64,000 nt of DNA. Origin: Eledone cirrhosa (lineage: Eukaryota). The position numbers and the translations under genes were made by a program. Under the pieces are notes generated by a model, which searched no databases, had not been told where the DNA came from, and saw only the letters and a program-made list of their open reading frames with translations. The DNA lies in contig OZ024742.1 of assembly GCA_964016885.1 (NCBI GenBank), positions 98,890,001-98,954,000 on the forward strand. The letters are read 5' to 3'. Positions 6,839 through 62,492 of the stretch are shown here, in pieces (position 1 is the stretch's first letter; each line of letters begins with the position of its first letter).

Positions 6839-7346
6839 ATATTGTTATACTTTGGGATGGTCGTGCTGCCAATAAAAACGCACACGCACCTGTTGGTTTT
6901 CTCGTCAGTTTATTATAAATTTCCGGTTGATCAGTTGGTTCGATATCCGGATGGTTGTTTATATCTTGTCAAAGCGCTTTCGTCACACAATATGTGACCT
7001 CCTCAGTGACTACATTTTTATATTATGTCCCTCCTTTGTTCTGTCCTACACCATTTTGTAAATAAACACATAAATAAACGCACACACACACACACGGATG
7101 TAACGCATGCGCAAAGTAAGCACACAAAAACAAGAATGTGGCAGGACAGAACAAAGGAGAGATACAAAAAATAAAAACCTAGTCATTGAGGAGGTCACCG
7201 AATGTGTTAAGAAAGAGCTTTGACAGTATATAAATAACCACCCGGTTAGCGAACCAAACGCTATTTTATAATACAATGAAGTGTAACAATTGCGTGGTGC
7301 GTGTATTTTTTATTTACAGAATGACCCTCCCAAAGTATAACAATAT
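6839..7346. mobile_element. Non-autonomous PLE-like element with inverted termini
   Basis: atattgttatactttggga.ggtc at the left end and gaccctcccaaagtataacaatat at the right. The same terminus occurs at 24510-24530, 33167, 53173 and 54045-54069. Two inverted HHR motifs lie inside. Confidence 0.7.
6968..7010 (-). ncRNA. Minimal type I hammerhead ribozyme motif
   Basis: Minus strand: gtca-CTGAGGA-g-gtcaca(tattg)tgtgac-GAAA-gcgc-TT-tgac. Stem I gtca/tgac, 6-bp stem II, palindromic loop III. A degenerate inverted copy lies at 7182-7224. Confidence 0.75.
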
Positions 7347-13364: not shown

Positions 13365-16090
13365 CACCAGGGCATCAAAGAGTGGGACAAGTACAATGGG
13401 GGGGGGGGGTTACATAAAAAGGTGTCCTCAATAAGGAGGAGGCAATAACAAAATATAAAAATATAAAAATATAAAATATAACAAAAATAAATTGAATAAC
13501 AAAATCCTCAATAGGGATGGGGCGCCTTGGAGGGCCGCACACACCCGCGAAAAAAGTGTGCAACCCTTTTCCTCGGGAGAGAGGGTGCTCCCTTGATCTT
13601 TTATCTTTCTCACTTACAGTCTGATGCCATTCTCGCCACTTTCACCCATCTTTCATAAAAGCGGCTGGGGTGCAGCACCTCTCTCTCCATCCTGATCCTT
13701 CTTCCGAAATGATATCGGAAGAAACGGATCAGTTGTTGGCCAGAGAGAAAGGTGTCTGACCTCAGTCCTTTCAGACGCGTCCACCATACAACCTCTTTCA
13801 CCATGGCTATTACGCACAGAAACACCGTCTCTCCTTCATTTTTGAAGAGGGGAGGAGGCTTGATCGTTACAATAAACTCGGTGGTCAACCGGATCGGTCC
13901 CACCCTTGACATCTGTCGTTCGACATAGCCCCACAGGTCGGCAATGCCCGAGCAGTGTACCAATACATGTGCAACGGTTTCCTCGTCGCACACGCATCTG
14001 GGACAGATCTTTTTCGAGGGGTCACTACCCGGGCGCCTGTGTCTGTAGAGCATTTTTCGAACGGGCAGAGTCCCTCGGAAGCACTGCCAGGCCAGGGACC
14101 TCTGGAAGTTATCCATAGGTCCCGGGCTGAATGTCCCCTCGAACGGGTCCGCCTGTCAGAGAGCCGTTAGTGCCTGGGCACACTCTGTGTTCCAGGCGCC
14201 CAGTTTTCTCGGTCTTTGCTTGACCCAGGATTGCAGCTAGGTGAGCGAGACGAGTCAGGGAAAGGCTCGCCTCACGAACGGGGCCCACACCGGTTGAACG
14301 GTGAGGAATACCTGGAGGTGCCGTAGCCTTAATGCGTGTTTACGCATCATCAGCCACGGCATCCCCAGCCCTCCTTTCGAAGGGTGGACAGCAGATGGAT
14401 CTCCTCACATAGGAGCCCGCTTCTTCCAAAGGAATTGGAAGAGTGCGCGCTCCATTTTGGCGAGCGTTTCCCTTCGGCAAGGCACGACGGTCAGGCGGTA
14501 GTAGATGACGGACGCTATATAAGTGTTCGCCAGCTCCGTCCGAACTTTCAGGGACAGTTTGCACTCGGCCCACTTCTGGGTAGTGCAAACTCCCTGTTCG
14601 TTACCTCACCCCAGTTCTTCTCCTCCTGGAGGTCTGGTCCGAACCAGACCCCGAGCAACTTCACCGGGCCCTCCGTCCAGCGCCCGACGACGCCATCGGA
14701 GTGCATCGATTTGCCCATCCACGTTCCGAGTTGCAAACCGATCGACTTGTCCCGGTTTAGCTTAGCCCCTGTAAACCTGTCGTACTCCTCCAGTAAGGTG
14801 CCGATCGCCCCGATTTCCGAGGCCGTCGACACCATTACGGTTACGTCATCGGCGTAGGCGGACACCGCTTTCCGCAATCCCGGTTCCAACGGGATGCCCT
14901 GCAACAACATCAACTTCCGCAACAGTGGCTCTAGCGCCATTACATACAGAAGGGAGAAGAGAGGGCAACCTTGTCGGATGGACCGTGCGATTTCGAACGG
15001 CTCCGAGAGGTAGCCATTCACCTTGACTCTAGAGCAGATGCGGCTGCTGTGCATGGCAGTGATCCAACCCCTGAAAACAGGTCAGAAGCCTGCCGCCGCT
15101 AGCACCGCATCCAGATAACCATGGTCGACCCTATCAAATGCCTTAGATTGATCCAAGTTGATCAGGGCCCCACCAAAGCCGGGTTCGTTCCCAACCCTCT
15201 CTATGATGTATCGCATGAGGTGGAGGTTGTCCTGGATGGACCTCGACGGGATAGCACATGTCTGCCCATCTCCCACCCGGTTGCCCACGACAAGCGCCTA
15301 CCTCTTTGCTAGCACCTTGGCCAACATCTGTAACTCTGTATTTAGCAGAGTTATGGGCCTAAAATTATTTATATCGTCCCCCTTGTTCTCGTCCTTCCTC
15401 ATTAGCGTGACTACGCCCTTGGTCACAGCACAGGGAATCCTCCGGTCCTTTTGCCAGTTGCAGTTTACCGCCTCGAGGAGATCGGGGAACAAGTCCGGCA
15501 TAGCTAGATATAGTTCGTATGGAAGACCATCGAGACCCGGGGATTTTCGTTTGCCGCATTGGCTCAGCACGTTATCTATCTCAGCGGCTGAAATCGGCTC
15601 CTCGCAGGACTTCGCCTCCATGACCGTGAGACGCGGCAGGCCGTCGAGGTATGGACCGAAGTCCACTTCCCCAACCGGCTCCCCGCCCCTTCCGAACAAT
15701 CTGGCAAAGTGCTTTTGAAAAGCCTCGCACATCTGCTTAGGTTCAAGGATCACCCGACCATCCTGGTCTCGCAAAGACCGGATAGTTGATTTACTCCCTC
15801 TTTTGGCTTCTGTCACGCGGGCCCAGCTAACAGCTTTGGTCCCCTCGTTTCCCAGAGCACATATTTTGCTTCGGACGATGCAGCCTTCGTGTTTCGCGTC
15901 GAAGAACTGGCCCAGGGCCGTTCTCGACGCTAGCACTCTGGCCACGTCGCCGCTTCTAATTGCCTCTTCTACACTATCTACCAACTCCCTTTCGTTCCTA
16001 TTTCTATTTGAGGCTAACTCCTTACTAAATTCTATAGAGACTACTGTAATCTCTCTTTTGAGAGATCCCCACCAACTGCTGTTGACGATA
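13365..16090 (-). mobile_element. 5'-truncated L1/Tx1-like LINE (ORF2 RT plus C-terminal CCHC), disrupted
   Basis: KSPGLDGLP, NFRPITLLN, LDQSKAFDRVDH, IRQGCPL, AYADDVT, CPRC...ET..H...C. Frameshifts and an internal deletion relative to the 59.5-62.5 kb copy. Confidence 0.9.
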
Positions 16091-16890
16091 GAATGGTAGC
16101 GTCAATACTAAGAGTAGACAGTTTTTTCACCACAAGTTTTGGAGGAGTGATATTTCTCAGCAAAATAACTGGCGTTCCCTCTTTCAGAACCAATGTATTA
16201 GGAGGTAAACCGGGAGGATTTAAAGAATTTAGAAATTCAACTGGATAATTGAGCGCATCCTGTGGATCACATATAGAATCAATAGATTTATATATCCGTG
16301 GACATCCAGGAAGAAGCTGAGGAATTTGATCGTTAATACAGCTAACCGTGATATTTTTGGGTGCAAGAATGGCTCTTTCAGTTAGCCAATCAAGATTCGT
16401 ATAGTTATCACGCAAGTTAGGGAATACAGTCGCCTTGAGATCATCGACAGTTTCAACTACATTGCAGATGTGGTCAATTGCTATGTGTCCATCTGTATCC
16501 GGAGGTAAGTTACCATCTCCTATTGTAAGCATATCTCCAGAAAATACTGATGACAGAGGGTCCCCATGCAATCTTGCACGCATGTCGGTAATTAGTCTTA
16601 ATGATGTCACTTGTCTCCACAATCGCTCTTCAGTAGGCAGCGGTTGCAGTGATCCAATGAGATGATACACCTGGCCCTGTACTTTGAAAGTCAGCATAAA
16701 TCCATCTTTCTTCAGACGTTTTGCACCGAAAGAGGTCATTTGAAACGCAATGTTGTACTGTCGGATATGCTTCAGAAAATCACGTGATTGTGAATGTTTA
16801 CCTGTTAGAAGCATCTGGAGAGGTTGCGGTGGTTCCCTAAGGGTGGGCAAATTAACCTTACCATTGGAGTAGCACATTGCAGCTGATTCT
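16091..16890 (-). mobile_element. Helitron RepHel fragment with internal deletion
   Basis: N-terminal Helitron motifs (GKVNLP...FLKHIRQYN.AFQMTSFG...FKVQGQVYH.IGSL) are fused in frame to Pif1-like helicase C-terminal motifs (L..DMR, ERAILAPKN, YPVEFLNSL.PPGLP, L.LK.G.PVILLRN). Confidence 0.85.
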
Positions 16891-17456
16891 AGACTGCTGC
16901 GAGATTAGGCCCTTACCGCGAAAATTAACACTTAATATAGTGAAACAAGTGAAAACAAGAAGTGTTTTTTTAACTTTGAAAGTGCAACAAATTTTTGTTT
17001 GTATCAACAAGGCTTATGAAAGTAGCGATACCGACTTTGGGGGTTTTACAGACGACGACATTCAGAATAGACAAGAAACAAACGATAATATTAGTGATTT
17101 ATCTTCAAATGAATTTGATGTTTATATTTCTGAAATTTCGTCCGACGATAATTGTTGTTTTGAAAGTGAAAATGAAGGTCTCCATATCTCCCCTCTCTCA
17201 CTCTCTTTATAAGGATTGTTAATAAAGTTTGTTATCTCCCTTACATCATGGACTTTAGAAAAAATAATTTTTGGTATCGATAATTTTGGTATCGATTTTT
17301 TATTGCTCAACGTGGGTCGATTTGAAAAATGTTTGTAATGTTACCATCCTAGCGACAGGTGCAGCGTGCGTAGAAAAATTTGGTCAAATTCGGTTGGGAA
17401 TTGTAAAAGCCTTAGGTATCCACATTTGTACACAGACACACACACATCCTCGCTTT

Positions 17457-17497
<41 letters not shown>

Positions 17498-17503
<6 letters not shown>

Positions 17504-20500
17504 AAGTGAGTCCTTCATCAGTGACCCTCCAACCGTCCTCGGCATTTCATCGCTTTAAGGGCCATATGCCTCAGGTTGGTGCGAACAACGGCTAAAAAAA
17601 GTCGTTGGGACACGTAAATAAAGGGGGACGCTAGAGTAACAACAAAGGGGTTTAAGCAACGGAAAGTGAGTAGAAATAGACAAGTCCCAGATCTATATGG
17701 CCCTTAAAGCGATGAAATGCCGAGGACGGTTGGAGGGTCACTGATGAAGGACTCACTTTTTCATATGTATCCCATTTGCAACGCCGCAGCTCCATTATTA
17801 TCATCATATTTACACATATTACTTTTCCATACTGCCTGTCTGTTTCGTTCCTTGTATCTTTACCACTTCTAGCAGTCTCCCTCACTGTTATTCTCTCCTC
17901 AACTTTCACTCACTCATTCTCTGTCACTACCTCTCCTCCTCCTCTTTCCTCCTCCTCCTTCAAGTTTGACCTGTGTGTAATTCTTTTCTCGCGCAGTCTT
18001 GACCGAGCTGGTATGGAATTTTTTTCTCTCTCTCTTTCGTCGGCGACTTCACAAAACTTGCGTTTACCGAATTCGTAGACCAGACGACTTTATCTTCTTC
18101 TTCTTCTTCTTCTTCTTCCTCTTCTCTCCTTTTTCTTTCTCTCTCTCTCTCTTTTTTCCCCCCCGTCAAACTTGGGCGAAATTCTTTCCTTGCTCACATT
18201 TCTACCAGGTTCGATGGTCTTTCGTCTCTTGTTCACGATTTCACAGAGTTTATATTCATAGAGATCTGGGACTTGTCTATTTCTACTCACTTTCCGTTGC
18301 TTAAACCCCTTTGTTGTTACTCTAGCGTCCCCCTTTATTTACGTGTCCCAACGACTTTTTTTAGCCGTTGTTCGCACCAACCTGAGGCATATGGCCCTTA
18401 AAGCGATGAAATGCCGAGGACGGTTGGAGGGTCACTGATGAAGGACTCACTTTTTCATATGTATCCCATTTGCAACGCCGCAGCTCCATTATTATCATCA
18501 TATTTACACATATTACTTTTCCATGCTGCCTGTCTGTTTCGTTCCTTGTATCTTTACCACTTCTAGCAGTCTCCCTCTCTGTTACTCTCTCCTCAACTTT
18601 CACTCACTCATTCTCTGTCACTACCTCTCCTCCTCCTCTTTCCTCCTCCTCCTTCAAGTTTGACCTGTGTGTAATTCTTTTCTCGCGCAGTCTTGACCGA
18701 GCTGGTATGGAATTTTTTTCTCTCTCTCTTTCGTCTGCGACTTCACAAAACTTGCGTTTACCGTATTCGTAGACCAGACGACTTTATCTTCTTCTTCTTC
18801 TTCTTCTTCTTCTTCTTCTTCTTCTTCTTCTTCTTCTTCTTCTTCTTCTTCTTCTTCCTCTTCTCTCCTTTTTCTTTCTCTCTCTCTCTCTTTTTTCCCC
18901 CCCGTCAAACTTGGGCGAAATTCTTTCCTTGCTCACATTTCTACCAGGTTCGATGGTCTTTCGTCTCTTGTTCACGATTTCACAGAGTTTATATTCATAG
19001 AGATCTGGGACTTGTCTATTTCTACTCACTTTCCGTTGCTTAAACCCCTTTGTTGTTACTCTAGCGTCCCCCTTTATTTACGTGTCCCAACGACTTTTTT
19101 TAGCCGTTGTTCGCACCAACCTAAGGCATATGGCCCTTAAAGCGATGAAATGCCGAGGACGGTTGGAGGGTCACTGATGAAGGACTCACTTTTTCATATG
19201 TATCCCATTTGCAACGCCGCAGCTCCATTATTATCATCATATTTACACATATTACTTTTCCATGTTGCCTGTCTGTTTCGTTCCTTGTATCTTTACCACT
19301 TCTAGCAGTCTCCCTCTCTGTTACTCTCTCCTCAACTTTCACTCACTCATTCTCTGTCACTACCTCTCCTCCTCCTCTTTCCTCCTCCTCCTTCAAGTTT
19401 GACCTGTGTGTAATTCTTTTCTCGCGCAGTCTTGACCGAGCTGGTATGGAATTTTTTTCTCTCTCTCTTTCGTCTGCGACTTCACAAAACTTGCGTTTAC
19501 CGAATTCGTAGACCAGACGACTTTATCTTCTTCTTCTTCTTCTTCTTCTTCTTCTTCTTCTTCTTCTTCTTCTTCTTCTTCTTCTTCTTCTTCTTCTTCT
19601 TCTTCTTCTTCTTCTTCCTCTTCTCTCCTTTTTCTTTCTCTCTCTCTCTCTTTTTTCCCCCCCGTCAAACTTGGGCGAAATTCTTTCCTTGCTCACATTT
19701 CTACCAGGTTCGATAGTCTTTCGTCTCTTGTTCACGATTTCACAGAGTTTATATTCATAGAGATCTGGGACTTGTCTATTTCTACTCACTTTCCGTTGCT
19801 TAAACCCCTTTGTTGTTACTCTAGCGTCCCCCTTTATTTACGTGTCCCAACGACTTTTTTTAGCCGTTGTTCGCACCAACCTGAGGCATATGGCCCTTAA
19901 AGCGATGAAATGCCGAGGACGGTTGGAGGGTCACTGATGAAGGACTCACTTTTTCATATGTATCCCATTTGCAACGCCGCAGCTCCATTATTATCATCAT
20001 ATTTACACATATTACTTTTCCATGTTGCCTGTCTGTTTCGTTCCTTGTATCTTTACCACTTCTAGCAGTCTCCCTCTCTGTTACTCTCTCCTCAACTTTC
20101 ACTCACTCATTCTCTGTCACTACCTCTCCTCCTCCTCTTTCCTCCTCCTCCTTCAAGTTTGACCTGTGTGTAATTCTTTTCTCGCGCAGTCTTGACCGAG
20201 CTGGTATGGAATTTTTTTCTCTCTCTCTTTCGTCTGCGACTTCACAAAACTTGCGTTTACCGTATTCGTAGACCAGACGACTTTATCTTCTTCTTCTTCT
20301 TCTTCTTCTTCTTCTTCTTCTTCTTCTTCTTCTTCTTCTTCTTCTTCTTCTTCTTCCTCTTCTCTCCTTTTTCTTTCTCTCTCTCTCTCTTTTTTCCCCC
20401 CCGTCAAACTTGGGCGAAATTCTTTCCTTGCTCACATTTCTACCAGGTTCGATGGTCTTTCGTCTCTTGTTCACGATTTCACAGAGTTTATATTCATAGA

Positions 20501-22972
20501 GATCTGGGACTTGTCTATTTCTACTCACTTTCCGTTGCTTAAACCCCTTTGTTGTTACTCTAGCGTCCCCCTTTATTTACGTGTCCCAACGACTTTTTTT
20601 AGCCGTTGTTCGCACCAACCTAAGGCATATGGCCCTTAAAGCGATGAAATGCCGAGGACGGTTGGAGGGTCACTGATGAAGGACTCACTTTTTCATATGT
20701 ATCCCATTTGCAACGCCGCAGCTCCATTATTATCATCATATTTACACATATTACTTTTCCATGTTGCCTGTCTGTTTCGTTCCTTGTATCTTTACCACTT
20801 CTAGCAGTCTCCCTCTCTGTTACTCTCTCCTCAACTTTCACTCACTCATTCTCTGTCACTACCTCTCCTCCTCCTCTTTCCTCCTCCTCCTTCAAGTTTG
20901 ACCTGTGTGTAATTCTTTTCTCGCGCAGTCTTGACCGAGCTGGTATGGAATTTTTTTCTCTCTCTCTTTCGTCTGCGACTTCACAAAACTTGCGTTTACC
21001 GAATTCGTAGACCAGACGACTTTATCTTCTTCTTCTTCTTCTTCTTCTTCTTCTTCTTCTTCTTCTTCTTCTTCTTCTTCTTCTTCTTCTTCTTCTTCTT
21101 CTTCTTCTTCTTCTTCTTCCTCTTCTCTCCTTTTTCTTTCTCTCTCTCTCTCTTTTTTCCCCCCCGTCAAACTTGGGCGAAATTCTTTCCTTGCTCACAT
21201 TTCTACCAGGTTCGATAGTCTTTCGTCTCTTGTTCACGATTTCACAGAGTTTATATTCATAGAGATCTGGGACTTGTCTATTTCTACTCACTTTCCGTTG
21301 CTTAAACCCCTTTGTTGTTACTCTAGCGTCCCCCTTTATTTACGTGTCCCAACGACTTTTTTTAGCCGTTGTTCGCACCAACCTGAGGCATATGGCCCTT
21401 AAAGCGATGAAATGCCGAGGACGGTTGGAGGGTCACTGATGAAGGACTCACTTTTTCATATGTATCCCATTTGCAACGCCGCAGCTCCATTATTATCATC
21501 ATATTTACACATATTACTTTTCCATGTTGCCTGTCTGTTTCGTTCCTTGTATCTTTACCACTTCTAGCAGTCTCCCTCTCTGTTACTCTCTCCTCAACTT
21601 TCACTCACTCATTCTCTGTCACTACCTCTCCTCCTCCTCTTTCCTCCTCCTCCTTAAAGTTTGACCTGTGTGTAATTCTTTTCTCGCGCAGTCTTGACCG
21701 AGCTGGTATGGAATTTTTTTCTCTCTCTCTTTCGTCTGCGACTTCACAAAACTTGCGTTTACCGAATTCGTAGACCAGACCACTTTATCTTCTTCTTCTT
21801 CTTCTTCTTCTTCTTCTTCTTCTTCTTCTTCCTCTTCTCTCCTTTTTTCTTTCTCTCTCTCTCTCTCTTTTTTCCCCCACGTCAAACTTGGGCGAAATTC
21901 TTTCCTTGCTCACATTTCTACCAGGTTCGATGGTCTTTCGTCTCTTGTTCACGATTTCACAGAGTTTATATTCATAGAGATCTGGGACTTGTCTATTTCT
22001 ACTCACTTTCCGTTGCTTAAACCCCTTTGTTATTACTCTAGCGTCCCCCTTTATTTACGTGTCCCAACGACTTTTTTTAGCCGTTGTTCGCACCAACCTG
22101 AGGCATATGGCCCTTAAAGCGATGAAATGCCGAGGACGGTTGGAGGGTCACTGATGAAGGACTCACTTTTTCATATGTATCCCATTTGCAACGCCGCAGC
22201 TCCATTATTATCATCATATTTACACATATTACTTTTCCATGCTGCCTGTCTGTTTCGTTCCTTGTATCTTTACCACTTCTAGCAGTCTCCCTCTCTGTTA
22301 CTCTCTCCTCAACTTTCACTCACTCATTCTCTGTCACTACCTCTCCTCCTCCTCTTTCCTCCTCCACCTTCAAGTTTGACCTGTGTGTAATTCTTTTCTC
22401 GCGCAGTCTTGACCGAGCTGGTATGGAATTTTTTTCTCTCTCTCTTTCGTCTGCGACTTCACAAAACTTGCGTTTACCGAATTCGTAGACCAGACGACTT
22501 TATCTTCTTCTTCTTCTTCTTCTTCTTCTTCTTCTTCTTCTTCTTCTTCTTCTTCTTCTTCTTCTTCTTCTTCTTCTTCTTCTTCTTCTTCTTCCTCTTC
22601 TCTCCTTTTTCTTTCTCTCTCTCTCTCTTTTTTCCCCCCCGTCAAACTTGGGCGAAATTCTTTCCTTGCTCACATTTCTACCAGGTTCGATGGTCTTTCG
22701 TCTCTTGTTCACGATTTCACAGAGTTTATATTCATAGAGATCTGGGACTTGTCTATTTCTACTCACTTTCCGTTGCTTAAACCCCTTTGTTGTTACTCTA
22801 GCGTCCCCCTTTATTTACGTGTCCCAACGACTTTTTTTAGCCGTTGTTCGCACCAACCTGAGGCACATGGCCCTTAAAGCGATGAAATGCCGAGGACGGT
22901 TGGAGGGTCACTGATGAAGGACTCACTTTTTCATATGTATCCCATTTGCAACGCCGCAGCTCCATTATTATC

Positions 22973-22974
<2 letters not shown>
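17498..22974 (+). repeat. Tandem array of a ~0.7 kb non-coding unit with internal (TTC)n and a 5' inverted partial copy; retrozyme/PLE-like
   Basis: Units start at 17698, 18392, 19131, 19891, 20630, 21393, 22108 and 22868 (lengths 694, 739, 760, 739, 763, 715, 760). 17498-17694 is the reverse complement of the unit-junction region. (TA)n flanks both sides. Confidence 0.95.
18377..18474 (+). ncRNA. Candidate hammerhead ribozyme with reversed strand order and a kink-turn (representative copy; recurs at each unit junction)
   Basis: ccaacc-tga-ggca-TA|tggccct-taaa-gcga-t-GAAA-tgcc-gag-ga-c-ggttgg-agggtca-CTGATGA-a... Stems I and III pair in exact hammerhead register, with covariation against the 33247-33345 copy. 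Confidence 0.65.
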
Positions 22975-23034
<60 letters not shown>

Positions 23035-23947: not shown

Positions 23948-24041
23948 GGTTTCTACATGACTAGAACAGTTTCATTTGGAATAAATCATCGGGGCTTCCT
24001 GATGATTTCTCCCGAATGAAACAGTTCTAGTCTGTAGAACC
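23948..24041. ncRNA. Pair of inverted minimal HHR-like motifs forming a fold-back
   Basis: Plus strand: ggcttc-CTGATGA-tttc(tccc)gaat-GAAACAG(ttctagt)CTGTA-gaacc. The inverted degenerate copy is at 23948-23993. Same family as 56067-56117. Confidence 0.55.
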
Positions 24042-24051
24042 ATTTTTATAT

Positions 24052-33204: not shown

Positions 33205-33811
33205 AAACGATATATAAACATGAGAAGAAAGAAGAATACTGCGTGGTTGCAAATGGGTTACATATGATAAAGATTGTCCTTCGTCAGTGACTTTCCAACC
33301 ATCATTGGTAATTCATCGCATTAAAAATCCGATACCTCAGGTTGGTGCGAGCAATAAGGAAAAAAAGTTATTGGGACCAGTAATTCGCGTAAAGCGAGGG
33401 GGACAAATAAACAACATAGAAGGATATAAGCAAACCGAAGATAGGAAAATAAACAAGCAACATGGTTGTCCGGTCAGCATAAGCTCGGTAGATTTCATGA
33501 GCGAGAGTTACAAACTGTCCGATGTGTGTGAGATGTAAGCAAGAAGAGACCCACTACAAGCCAAACGGGCGGAAGTGAGAAGGGGAGAAACAGAGAGTGA
33601 GTGAGTGGAAGTGTGAGGAAGAGGTCAGTCGAGAGAAAGTGTAACTGACGGAGGGGGCGAAAGAAGGTGAGAGAAACAGAGAGAGCGGGGAAGCAGTAAG
33701 AGAGAAACAGACAAACGCAGCCGAGGTAAATATATATAAAAAAACATGAGAAGAAAGAAGAATACTGCGTGGTTGCAAATGGGTTACATTTGATAAAATA
33801 GTCCTTCGTCA

Positions 33812-38544: not shown

Positions 38545-41572
<3,028 letters not shown>

Positions 41573-42975: not shown

Positions 42976-43378
42976 TATATTAATAAAAGGAATTCCAACT
43001 TTGTCTGATTTACTCCTTTTATTTGCAATCCTTTAAAATGTATAATGGTATTAGAATGAAATAGTATGGTAGAATATTAAATGTTCCGTCTTAATTGAAC
43101 AAGTACTTTCCTGCTTTCGCAATCTTCAGGTTCATATTCTGTGGTGACTGTCAAATTTGCAATTTTCAACTGTGAAATTTTAAACAGTTGAAAATTGCAA
43201 ACTTGAGTGTCACCACAGAATATGAACCTGAAGATTGCGTAAGCATGAAAGTACTTCTTCAATTAACACTTAACATTTAATATTCTACCATACTAGTTCA
43301 TTCTAATGCCCTTATACATTTTAAAGGATTGTAAATAAACGAGTAAATCAGACAGTTGGAATTCGTTTTATTAATATA
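42976..43378. mobile_element. Imperfect fold-back element with one HHR per arm
   Basis: Arms of ~195 bp around a gaaattttaa spacer near 43175, with HHRs at 43096-43134 (-) and 43223-43261 (+). Confidence 0.8.
43096..43134 (-). ncRNA. Minimal type I hammerhead ribozyme motif
   Basis: tgaac-CTGAAGA-ttgc(gaaa)gcag-GAAA-gtac-TT-gttca. GNRA loop II (GUAA in the other arm) and palindromic loop III. Confidence 0.75.
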
Positions 43379-52114: not shown

Positions 52115-54069
<1,955 letters not shown>

Positions 54070-55709: not shown

Positions 55710-56066
55710 TACGTTATTCCGGGTTGAATCGGAGGTAACCACAGTAAGTAAGGTACTTAATACATTGCAGAGTATAAAAGTTGTAATATAGATGAGATTC
55801 TACAAACTGATGTGATAAAAGATATACTTATCTTAGCTTAAGAGAAACTTAATAATAAGGAGTGGCACCCCATCCTGAACCTGTTTATAGAATTCTTTCT
55901 GCCTTTGTTACTCTAAAAATAAAAATAAAAATAAACTATAGCTTTGTAGAATTAGCTTTTAATGAATTCCCTTTTCTATCAACCAATGACCTACACCCAC
56001 CCCACTCCCTACCCTCTCCTACCACTTGAAGAGACCTATAAATACCATACTTATTTTTTGATACCC

Positions 56067-56117
56067 AGGTTCCTGATGATTTCTAAAGAATGAAACAGTT
56101 CTAGTCCTGTAGAATCT
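56067..56117 (+). ncRNA. Minimal type I HHR-like motif inside a PLE-like element (~55708-56230)
   Basis: aggttc-CTGATGA-tttc(taaa)gaat-GAAACAG(ttctagtc)CTGTA-gaatct. 55715-55805 matches 23870-23958. Confidence 0.6.
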
Positions 56118-56132
56118 CATCTATATTAAAAC

Positions 56133-59498: not shown

Positions 59499-62492
59499 CC
59501 ACCAGGGCATCAAAGATTGGAACACATACAAAGGGGGGGAGTTTACATACATTTAAAAAGACGTGTAAAAAACATATAACAAATTAAATTTAACAATCGA
59601 TGTCCTCAATAGGGAGGGGCGTTGACATGGGTCGCACACACCCCCGAAAAAATGTGCAACGCTCCTCTTCAGGAGCACAAAGAGCGGGTGCTTCCTTCCT
59701 CTCCTCATTCTTCTCCTCTCTCACCTACAGGCTGATATAGAGAGAAGGCCCATTCACTCGGGCCATTCTCGCTACTTTCACCCATCTTTCATAAAACTTG
59801 CTGGGGTAGAGCACCCCTCTCTCCATTCTGATCCTTCTTCTAAAGTGGTACTTGAAAAAAAAGACCAGTTGTTGGCCGGAGAGATAGGTGTCTGACCTCA
59901 GCCCTTTCAACCTTGTCCACCATACAACTTCTTTCGCCATGGCTATCACACAGAGGAAAACCGCCTCTCCTTCGTTTTTGAAAGGAGGAGGCGGTTTGAT
60001 TGTGACAATGTTCTCGGTGGTCAACCGGATTGGTCCCACCCGCGACAGTAGTCGTTCTACATAGCCCCACAGGTCAGCAACGCCCGGGCAGTGTACGAAT
60101 GCGTGTGCGACGGTTTCCTCGTCACGCACGCATCTTGGACAGATCTTCTTCGAGGGGTCCCTACCCGGGCGCCCGTGTCTGTAGAGCTTGTCCCGAACGG
60201 GTAGAGCTCCTCGGTAACATTGCCAAGCCAGGGACTTTTGGAAGTTGTCAATCGGTCCCGGGCCAAACGTCCAACCGAACAGACTGGCCAGCTCGTCTTC
60301 CTCCATGCCCAGAGCCTGTCCGAGAGCGTCGTCGCACTTACTGCGCACCAACCCTCTATAGAATGTTGAGGTTGAGTCTCCACTGATTGCCGGATCCGCT
60401 TGCCAGAGGGCCGTGAGCGCCTGGGCACATTCAATGTGCCAGTCGCCCATTTTTCTCGGTCTTTGCTTGACCCAGGATTGCAGCTCGGTGAGTGAGACGA
60501 GTCTCGGAAAGGCTCGCCTCACAAACAGGGCCCACACCGGCTGACCGGTGAGGAATACCTGGAGGTGCCGTAGCCTTAATGCGTGTCTACGCATCGTCAG
60601 CCACGGCCCCCCAGCCCTCCGTTCGAAGGGTGTTGACAGCAGATGGATCTTCTCACCAAAGGAGCCCGCTTCTTCCAAAGAAATCGGAAGAGCGCGCGCT
60701 CCATTTTGGCGAGTGTTTTCTCTGGGCAAGGCACGACGGTCAAGCGGTAGTAGATGACGGACGCTATATAAGCGTTCGCCACCTCCGCTCGACCTTTCAG
60801 GGATAGTTTGCACTCGGCCCACTTCTGGGCGAGTGCAAACACCTTGCCCGTTATCTCGTCCCAGTTTTTCTCCACCTGGAGGTCCGGTCCGAACCAGACC
60901 CCGAGCAGCTTCACCGGTCTCTCCGTCCAGCGTCCGACGATGCCGTCGGAGGGCATCGTTTTGCCCCTCCACGTCCCGAGTTGCAAACCGACGGACTTGT
61001 CCCGGTTCAGCTTGGCTCCTGTGAACCTTTCATATTCCTCCAGTAAGGTGCCGATCTGCCCGATTTCCGAGGCGCACGACACCATTACTGTCACGTCATC
61101 GGCGTAGGCCGACACCGCTTTCCGCAATCCCGATTCCAAGGGGATGCCCTGCAACAGCTCCAGCTTCCTCAGTAGTGGCTCGAGAGCCAGCACATACAGG
61201 AGCGAGGAGAGAGGGCATCCCTGTCGAATGGATCGCGTGATTTGGAACGGCTCCGAGAGGTAGCCGTTCACCTTGACCCTCGAGCAGGTGTTGCTGCTGT
61301 GCATTGCAGCAATCCAGCCCCTGAAAACGGGTTCGAAGCCTGCCGCCGCGAGCACCGCATCCAGGTACCGATGGTCAACCCTATCGAACGCTTTAGATTG
61401 ATCCAAGTTGATCAGGGCCCCACCAAAGCCGGGTTCGTTCCCTACCCTCTCTACGATGTATCGCATGAGGTGGAGGTTGTCGTGTATGGACCTGGACGGG
61501 ATTGCGCATGTCTGCGCTTCTCCCACCAGGTTCCCGACGACAAGCGCCAACCTCTTCGCTAACACCTTGGCCAAAATCTTTAACTCTGTGTTTAGCAGAG
61601 TTATGGGCCTGAAGTTATCTATGTCATCCCCCTTGTTCTCGTCCTTCCTCACCAGCGTGACTACGCCCTTGGTCACAGAACTGGGAATTCTCCCGTTCTG
61701 TTGCCAGTTGCAGTAGACCGCCTCGAGGAGACCGGAGAACAAGCCCGGCATCGCTACATAAAGTTCGTATGGTAGACCATCGAGACCCGGAGATTTGCGT
61801 TTGCCGCATTGGCTCAGCGCTTTCCCTATTTCAGCGGCTGAAATCGGCCTCTCGCAGGACTTCGCCTCCCTGTCCGAGAGCCGCGCCAGACCGTCGAGGT
61901 ATGGACGAAATCCATGGCCCCACCCGGCCCGCCGCCCCTCCCGAACAGTCGTGCAAAGCGCCGTTGAAAGGCCGCGCTCATCCGCTCAGGTTCAAGGTTC
62001 ACGCGTCCATCCTGGTCCTTCAAAGACCGAATCGTGGACTTGTTTCCACTTTTTGCCTCTGTCACTCGGGCCCAGCTAACAGCTTTGGCTCCCTCGTTAC
62101 CCAGAGCACGTATTTTACTCCTGACAACGCAGCCCTCGTGCTTCGCATCAAAGAACTGGTCTAGGGCCGTTCTTGACGCCATCACGCCGGCCACTCCTAA
62201 TCGCCTCTTCTACTCTATTTGTTAATTCCCTTTCAGTTCTATTCCTATCTGATGCTAATTCCCGACTAAAACCTATCGATTCTATTCTAATTTCTCTCTT
62301 GAAAGAGCCCCACCACCTCCTGTTGACAATTGCCCCCGTCAAACGCTGCTTAACTAGTGTGCTAATCCGCTTACTGTAAGCTTTGTTTGTCGGTAAAGAC
62401 AAGTCTAGCTTCCAGTAACCGGGTCCCTGTCTATGAGTTCTATCAAGGTTGACCACTCCGGTCAATAACTTGTGATCCGAATAGTCAACCAT
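59499..62492 (-). mobile_element. 5'-truncated L1/Tx1-like LINE ORF2 (end of APE, RT, CCHC), frameshifted
   Basis: YSDHK...GPGYWKL, NFRPITLLN, KAFDRVDH, RQGCPLS, YADDV, CPRC..H..C. The 3' end caccagggcatcaaag is shared with 13365. Confidence 0.92.

Follow-up and report, generated by a model that had tools for sequence, protein, structure and literature searches.

A predicted hammerhead ribozyme of reversed strand order, opened at the A9/10.1 junction, in a Penelope-like tandem repeat of Eledone cirrhosa

Results

A tandem repeat carries a hammerhead core in reversed order

The window, as we call the whole 64,000-nt stretch of E. cirrhosa DNA analysed here, contains a motif that is a hammerhead core with its conserved blocks in the order cleavage site, GAAA, CUGANGA (S-G-C). 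Its likely explanation is a cis-acting hammerhead whose type-SGC core has been rearranged further and which resides in a non-autonomous Penelope-like (PLE) tandem repeat, a retrozyme, with its origin at a Naiad 3′ end. That the fold is real and under selection we regard as nearly certain; somewhat less firmly, we consider it highly probable that the predicted ribozyme cleaves in cis and, to the same degree, that the ribozyme unit descends from Naiad.

17695..22975 (+), tandem array of seven units of 694–763 nt with eight cores, non-coding, ending in (TA)n
17500..17699 (−), inverted copy at the left end of the array, 5′-truncated, with the ribozyme complete and (TA)n at its end
18461..18508 (+), optional tail of PLE type between two recurrent 3′ ends of family 1 (the family of the array)

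Units of the array differ at 0–9 of 670 non-microsatellite positions and have neither a reverse transcriptase (RT) nor a GIY-YIG frame among their open reading frames. The array is flanked by (TA)n on both sides. Ten distinct junctions of family 1 into (TA)n lie at the equivalent of position 18460 and six were scored at 18508, some of the latter type turning to (TA)n a few bases earlier. A five-helix descriptor matches seven of the nine cores in the window (eight forward, one inverted); of the two missed, one (core 17741) belongs to a 5′-truncated copy and the other (core 22911) has C in place of U16.1.

Every core segment named in a preliminary description of this DNA lies where that description had put it: GGCAT (18386–18390), A18391, TGGCCCT (18392–18398), the TAAA linker, GCGA (18403–18406), T18407, GAA (18408–18410), ATGCC (18411–18415), AGGGTCA (18428–18434), CTGATGA (18435–18441), A18442 and TTGC (18470–18473). 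The motif possesses the hammerhead core (C3–A9, G12–A14, A15.1–U16.1 and H17), flanked by stems I and III, which covary, as well as a stem II and a 10.1–11.1 pair that is A-U in families 1 and 2 and G-C in family 5. The reversed, pseudoknotted order recognised in that description is confirmed; it departs from the cyclic order C-G-S of types I, II and III and their Rfam models. Standard descriptors do miss the motif, as had been foreseen, and an Rfam search at gathering scores matched no hammerhead family in the window; nor did 11 Naiad-type loci return any Rfam match at these scores. We put a weak match to ceN56 (E 1.6, 16 versus 60 bits) down to resemblance of the internal loop. The core is not a chance occurrence, a similar descriptor yielding no match in 6.4 Mb of shuffled loci. 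The published type-SGC descriptor demands CGAAA, CUGAUGA(U)G and at least two further pairs (PMC10085705).

Other repeats and mobile elements lie elsewhere in the window. Another repeat family has canonical type I hammerheads at 23985–24050 (+) and 56060–56125 (+), below Rfam gathering scores, and further PLE families contribute minimal motifs resembling type I hammerheads at 43080–43145 (−) and 6950–7030 (−). Broken PLE frames with GIY-YIG and RT pieces occupy 39320–39781 (−), 40508–40900 (+) and 52115–53178 (−), the first pair being inverted. Two broken retrotransposon copies with RT motifs (13610–16101 and 59725–61985, both −) we take to be non-LTR retrotransposons, and a frame at 16041–16904 (−) is presumably helicase-like. 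Elsewhere in the genome, loci L274, L280 and L287 are short tandem repeats (310–470 nt) with type I hammerheads, implying that ordinary retrozymes coexist in E. cirrhosa.

Related families retain pairing

The genome (~3.0 Gb) contains further families of the ribozyme. Family 2 was found by DNA similarity, not by its core, whereas families 3, 4 and 5 were reached through core-demanding patterns, which renders the conservation of their cores circular. A 161-nt family 1 query returned 943 candidates, of which the best 40 scored were all 100% identical; family 2, with a unit of ~527 nt, returned 1390, families 3 and 5 returned 1202 and 965, respectively, and family 4 gave seven matches, none of these candidate numbers being a copy number. 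One copy of family 2 lies within the window.

33239..33370 (−), copy of the family 2 ribozyme with GAAA changed to GAAT

Decayed copies of further reverse-order families were seen at L276 (~6182, +), L277 (~2539, +), L053 (532–591) and L166 (2803–2873). Sequence variants of the ribozyme unit are present in three sequencing-run contig sets.

Families 1 and 2 differ at 21 of 102 nt. Fourteen of these differences fall at paired positions, where all 14 keep pairing and six pairs change on both sides; the seven unpaired ones include N7 and N17, and none touches the 11 invariant core bases. The stems of family 3 differ in sequence and its pairing is the same. We then aligned 16 chosen copies of families 1, 2 and 5 (alignment A2): 92.9% of 464 cells are paired, compared with 27–47% in slid controls, and 20 of 34 pairs change on both sides, cell counts that overstate the number of events because A2 holds few independent lineages.

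Predicted fold of the ribozyme

18345..18446 (+), whole predicted ribozyme, a reverse-order (SGC-core) hammerhead opened at the A9/10.1 junction
18345..18348 with 18443..18446 (+), closing helix Pc; eight informative A2 rows, UCCU/AGGA in family 3
18349..18370 (+), hairpin Pa; double-sided changes at three of six pairs, all cells paired (100%), pair probability 0.82–0.91
18372..18375 (+), strand X, the displaced 5′ strand of stem II, pairing with 18403–18406 (11.2–11.5)
18377..18382 with 18422–18427 (+), P0, the helix tying stems I and II; five of six pairs change on both sides
18383..18385 opposite 18416–18421 (+), k-turn-like internal loop with the short strand UGA
18386..18391 (+), block S: 5′ strand of stem III, U16.1 (18390) and N17 (A18391); four of five pairs change on both sides
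18392..18398 with 18428–18434 (+), 5′ strand of stem I with its partner; double-sided changes at five of seven pairs, 96.4% of cells paired
18399..18402 (+), linker joining stem I to stem II at their distal ends, read from the sequence
18403..18415 (+), block G: 3′ strand of stem II, U11.1 (18407), G12-A13-A14-A15.1 (18408–18411) and 3′ strand of stem III
18422..18442 (+), 3′ strands of P0 and stem I, C3–A9 (18435–18441) and A10.1 (18442)

Covariation supports a stem II composed of two strands, with A18442-U18407 at the core followed by the upstream strand X. It likewise supports a P0 that links stems I and II at their distal ends and bends back to stem III via the k-turn-like loop, and a Pc and Pa that branch at the A9/10.1 junction, the RNA ends exiting through Pc. 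Stems I and III as originally drawn are borne out by covariation, as is the A-U 10.1–11.1 pair (18442/18407), which is U-A in five A2 rows, C-G in seven, U-G in two and unpaired in two; the short linker between the distal ends of stems I and II also stands. A distal stem II formed by GCGA and TTGC finds no support, the matching 4-mer being GTGC in family 2 and unrelated in families 3–5. GCGA pairs instead with the upstream TCGC (18372–18375), with compensatory changes (U-A to G-C and C-G to U-A). This helix is the weakest in A2, with 78.8% of cells paired; it reads GGCGCU/AGCGCC in family 3 and comprises 4–6 bp in seven metagenome loci. Since P0, Pc, Pa and the k-turn-like loop had been overlooked, the motif begins at 18345, not at 18377. 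Pc, nearly invariant in A2, says little by itself, and Pa is missing from family 5.

Within the loop between P0 and stem III, the strand 18383–18385 reads NGA in 13 of 16 rows and the opposite strand has GA in all 16. The loop forms a 3-nt bulge and tandem G-A pairs in 13 of 16 rows, a pattern that we take to be that of a k-turn. Family 3 and the inspected metagenome examples have bulges at this place instead. Geometry calls for a sharp bend, because stem III and the I–II helix have their distal ends far apart (PMC10085705).

In families 1, 2 and 5, the base that follows A9 is the partner of position 11.1 (A-U or G-C). That base cannot pair with 11.1 in families 3 and 4 and in six of the seven metagenome SGC matches, where strand X provides G10.1; at metagenome locus L229 either partner would serve. 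The backbone opening therefore sits immediately on one side or the other of 10.1. For families 1 and 2 we prefer the register of X given above to an alternative one (GUUGUU or AUUGC), which draws on the 3′ strand of Pa, is misaligned with family 5 and does not adjoin P0.

From the sequence, the cut is predicted at 18391/18392, after AUA; N17 is A or C in the aligned copies. Stem II is weak in family 1, where it consists of a single A-U pair and a 4-bp helix (−3.6 kcal/mol). Nested folding supports Pa, stem III and partly P0 and assigns stems I and II probabilities of at most 0.02, as expected of pseudoknots, a value that lends these stems no support either. It also predicts a hairpin (18438–18445/18451–18458; window 18438–18458, +) that hides part of the CUGAUGA core, and family 3 has a similar downstream complement to CUGAUGA. 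Judging from this modelling, the hairpin could be an off-switch.

Predicted reverse-order hammerheads near the 3′ ends of Naiad elements

Naiad PLEs were reported to be without canonical hammerheads, with 'HHR_core' flagged in nine and 'HHR_half_core' in eight of 54 and the flagged cores fitting no descriptor (Craig et al. 2021, PMC8557442). The suggestion to compare the motif with PLE clades of this kind proved to be the right lead. We read the Naiad consensus DNA of that study by eye around CTGATGA (places 1–15 and 21–50 of 62), CTGACGA (1–15 of 23) and CTGAAGA (9–38 of 43) and at four record boundaries. In these passages, the opened-SGC fold is clear in Naiad_Amil, _Aacu, _Anas, _Obim and _Ovul and in two more records, which come from supplement parts 12 and 19 and which the order of the file would assign to a box jellyfish and a crustacean; two others (parts 8 and 25) show it partially. 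Type-CSG is clear in Naiad-2_Nbra, Naiad-3_Nbra and three records of parts 13, 15 and 16. By eye, at least 14 of the 54 published records carry a reverse-order fold, clear or partial (PMC8557442). By eye, the 3′ ends of Naiad_Ovul and Naiad_Obim have the architecture of the window motif, and Naiad_Ovul has GAAACCATAGTGAT in common with family 5; the fold and short identities thus read point to a possible kinship of the array unit with the 3′ ends of these octopus Naiads, an ORF-linked copy not being found in the E. cirrhosa genome. Bivalve passages of the same supplement showed no core by eye. Several arthropod 3′ ends (parts 16–18) carry CCCC-CUGA(C/A)GA, which fits neither SGC nor CSG and is possibly another variant.

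A decayed RT of the E. cirrhosa genome led to Naiad-type proteins with N-terminal GIY-YIG and, from these, to 80 metagenome loci. Ten of them match the descriptor on the sense strand, seven as opened-SGC and three as CSG (two of the three being identical in the ribozyme region), whereas the antisense strands of the same loci and 10 shuffles of 243 kb gave none; the descriptor limits had been widened after inspection of the loci, its first version matching seven. Nine of the ten lie 3′ of the Naiad-type RT ORF and one lies 5′. The remaining 70 loci are without a match, at least 600 nt following the ORF in only 29 of the 80, and a type I hammerhead was found in none of the 80. N-terminal GIY-YIG precedes the RT in six of 13 loci checked.

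Plain type-CSG hammerheads occur in the Naiad-type 3′ UTRs of L230 (~3613) and L231 (~3746). A CSG form in which two hairpins separate A9 from G10.1 was recognised in L227 (~3028) by descriptor and in L214 (~2350) and L237 (~2921) by eye; L244 has one at ~1594, which is cut by the contig end. The two hairpins of L214, L227 and L237 correspond to Pc and Pa, and the opened-SGC and CSG forms are circular permutations of one reverse-order fold.

The unit of the array has no ORF with the N-terminal GIY-YIG, CxC, DKA and RT of a Naiad PLE and is therefore a Naiad derivative at most. An intact Naiad RT was not found among 115 + 101 matches in the E. cirrhosa genome, the Naiad-like ones being broken or short. 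The decayed Naiad family of this genome has no parseable core in its 3′ UTR (18 copies aligned), and no ORF-linked copy of the ribozyme was found in the genome. Ribozyme copies near RT loci L143/L179, L276, L277 and L280 were judged to be separate insertions because they lie on the opposite strand or inside (TA)n. Three decayed PLE frames gave nothing above the Pfam cut-off, and viral contigs scanned for Naiad RT yielded none.

Discussion

Proposed mechanism and alternative readings

We infer that the RNA cuts itself in cis at 18391/18392, circularises and is mobilised in trans. Read-through transcripts would fold Pa, P0 and stem III first, with stems I and II docking once CUGAUGA has been transcribed. 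G12 and the G8 2′-OH would cut after A18391; these groups perform hammerhead catalysis, a 1-bp stem II being tolerated (PMC11300833), and AUA is a natural cleavage triplet (PMC1636495). The cut would release ~740-nt monomers able to circularise, and retrozymes do form monomer circles (PMC7229834; bioRxiv 10.64898/2026.07.22.740005). A PLE RT/endonuclease acting in trans would nick (TA)n and start reverse transcription inside the RNA, ~69 or ~110 nt past the cut; internal initiation is known to give tails (PMC11167929). Trans priming on (TA)n would produce tandem arrays, tails and inverted 5′ copies. Type-SGC and type-CSG RNAs cleave in vitro, with five SGC RNAs cleaved and all four helices needed (PMC10085705).

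As regards mobilisation only, family 1 may now be moved in trans by intact Poseidon-type PLEs of the genome and not by Naiad, which we regard as possible but rather unlikely. This would suit the 100% identity of family 1 copies over 161 nt (best 40 of 943 candidates), the Naiad-like matches that are all broken or short, and the long open PLE frames in 18 stretches examined, which are Poseidon-type (C-terminal EN, DKG) and several of which have type I hammerheads nearby. However, the searches scored the best candidates only and the assembly may miss a rare intact Naiad; moreover, the units and Poseidon elements have no sequence in common save separate insertions into (TA)n.

Alternatively, the conserved fold could be a structure for protein recognition or for the start of reverse transcription, with cleavage poor, absent or dispensable for transposition. 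Insertion by a Poseidon PLE in vitro was unimpaired by core mutants, and no reads ended at the cut site of that element (PMC11167929); the weak stem II, the predicted competing hairpin and the many core-mutated copies in older families point in the same direction. Yet the core differs between families 1 and 2 only at N7 and N17, positions that are free in hammerheads, and 11.1 is always partnered, via X or the base after A9, and we judge this reading improbable. In another reading, neighbouring units would contribute blocks to the active ribozyme, either in trans or as dimers; assembly in trans had been raised in the preliminary description, and dimers have been proposed for minimal PLE hammerheads (PMC4209133). 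The tandem, near-identical units would lend themselves to such assembly. It is not required to build the fold, however, as all helices close within 102 nt, and with a non-palindromic stem III and a complete fold in single-copy Naiad 3′ UTRs we deem it very unlikely. An ordinary type-SGC hammerhead with stem II drawn from sequence 3′ of CUGAUGA, contiguous or from the distal TTGC, would share block order, short linker and I–II helix but is scarcely credible, the contiguous stem II having 0–2 pairs in all own-genome copies scored and 0–1 pairs in five metagenome SGC matches, and the distal 4-mer not being kept between families.

Novelty and implications

For the cis-acting, further rearranged hammerhead that we favour, what looks new is the completion of stem II by a strand 5′ of the whole core, with the RNA ends leaving at A9/10.1, and also the host, a young, non-coding, (TA)n-targeting Penelope-like tandem repeat together with Naiad-type loci. 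Subscription journals and bioRxiv supplements aside, we found neither SGC nor CSG hammerheads described for any retroelement or animal genome, and a 2026 paper (PMC13725137) mentions Eckert in passing only. We lean towards a joint view in which many Naiads carry a reverse-order hammerhead split at A9/10.1 by two helices or by the RNA ends, outside Eckert's six permutations and here with a k-turn, thousands of retrozyme copies in animal genomes have gone unseen by type I searches, and the youngest family has perhaps been moved by a different PLE clade. If true, non-circularly permuted hammerheads, till now confined to environmental sequence and one weak bacterial candidate, would occur in animal genomes at high copy. 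This would answer the puzzle of why Naiad PLEs seemed to be without the ribozyme carried by other PLEs, and it would weaken the argument, drawn from its absence in Naiad, that hammerheads may merely parasitise PLEs. The block from CUGANGA to stem II would accept inserted helices, which bears on ribozyme searches and design.

Comparison with known systems

The S-G-C order, which the preliminary description did not know to have been described, had already been published and validated as type-SGC (HRIMA-1 and an SGC variant; Eckert et al. 2023, PMC10085705), and the suggestion of a new order therefore falls. The window motif has the same block order, full core and I–II helix (P0) and a linker within the 0–8 nt of type-SGC, in which 3 nt is typical (PMC10085705). 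In type-SGC, stem II directly follows CUGANGA in an uninterrupted block C and the I–II helix is completed 3′ of CUGANGA, whereas in the window motif the contiguous stem II is a single pair, the 5′ strands of stem II and of P0 lie upstream of the core, and Pc and Pa stand at A9/10.1. Eckert et al. had taken CUGANGA, together with the paired nucleotides next to it, to be a block that tolerates no interruption. Their type-SGC examples came from metatranscriptomes, and genomes of known organisms yielded none (PMC10085705); the window motif, by contrast, belongs to a high-copy animal retroelement. Type-CSG, for which two natural sequences were published (PMC10085705), has the same cyclic strand order as the window motif, and this is how we read the Naiad-type L230/L231 and, by eye, the nematode Naiad consensus 3′ ends. 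In type-CSG the chain is opened beyond stem III, in the window motif within the Pc loop; L214, L227 and L237 add two hairpins.

The PK hammerhead (Zhan et al. 2024, PMC11300833) is alike in that a single 10.1–11.1 pair is continued by a remote-strand helix and is catalytically competent. Its pseudoknot partner is the loop of a separate stem-loop (helix IV), its connectivity is pistol-like and its block order is apparently not reversed.

Metazoan non-LTR retrozymes are, like the array, non-coding tandems with one hammerhead per unit, and their mobilisation by PLEs via circular RNA has been proposed (PMC7229834; bioRxiv 10.64898/2026.07.22.740005). They are defined by type I hammerheads, which the unit of the window lacks; sought with type I descriptors, retrozymes of the window family are invisible to such searches.

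Naiad and other PLE insertions match the window element in target site, tail and inverted copy, although tail, inversion and microsatellite targeting are not specific to a clade. The window element differs from a Naiad PLE in having no ORF. What it has in common with Naiad PLEs (PMC8557442) is the (TA)n target, partial tandems, the inverted 5′ copy, the tail and the same ribozyme fold near the 3′ end.
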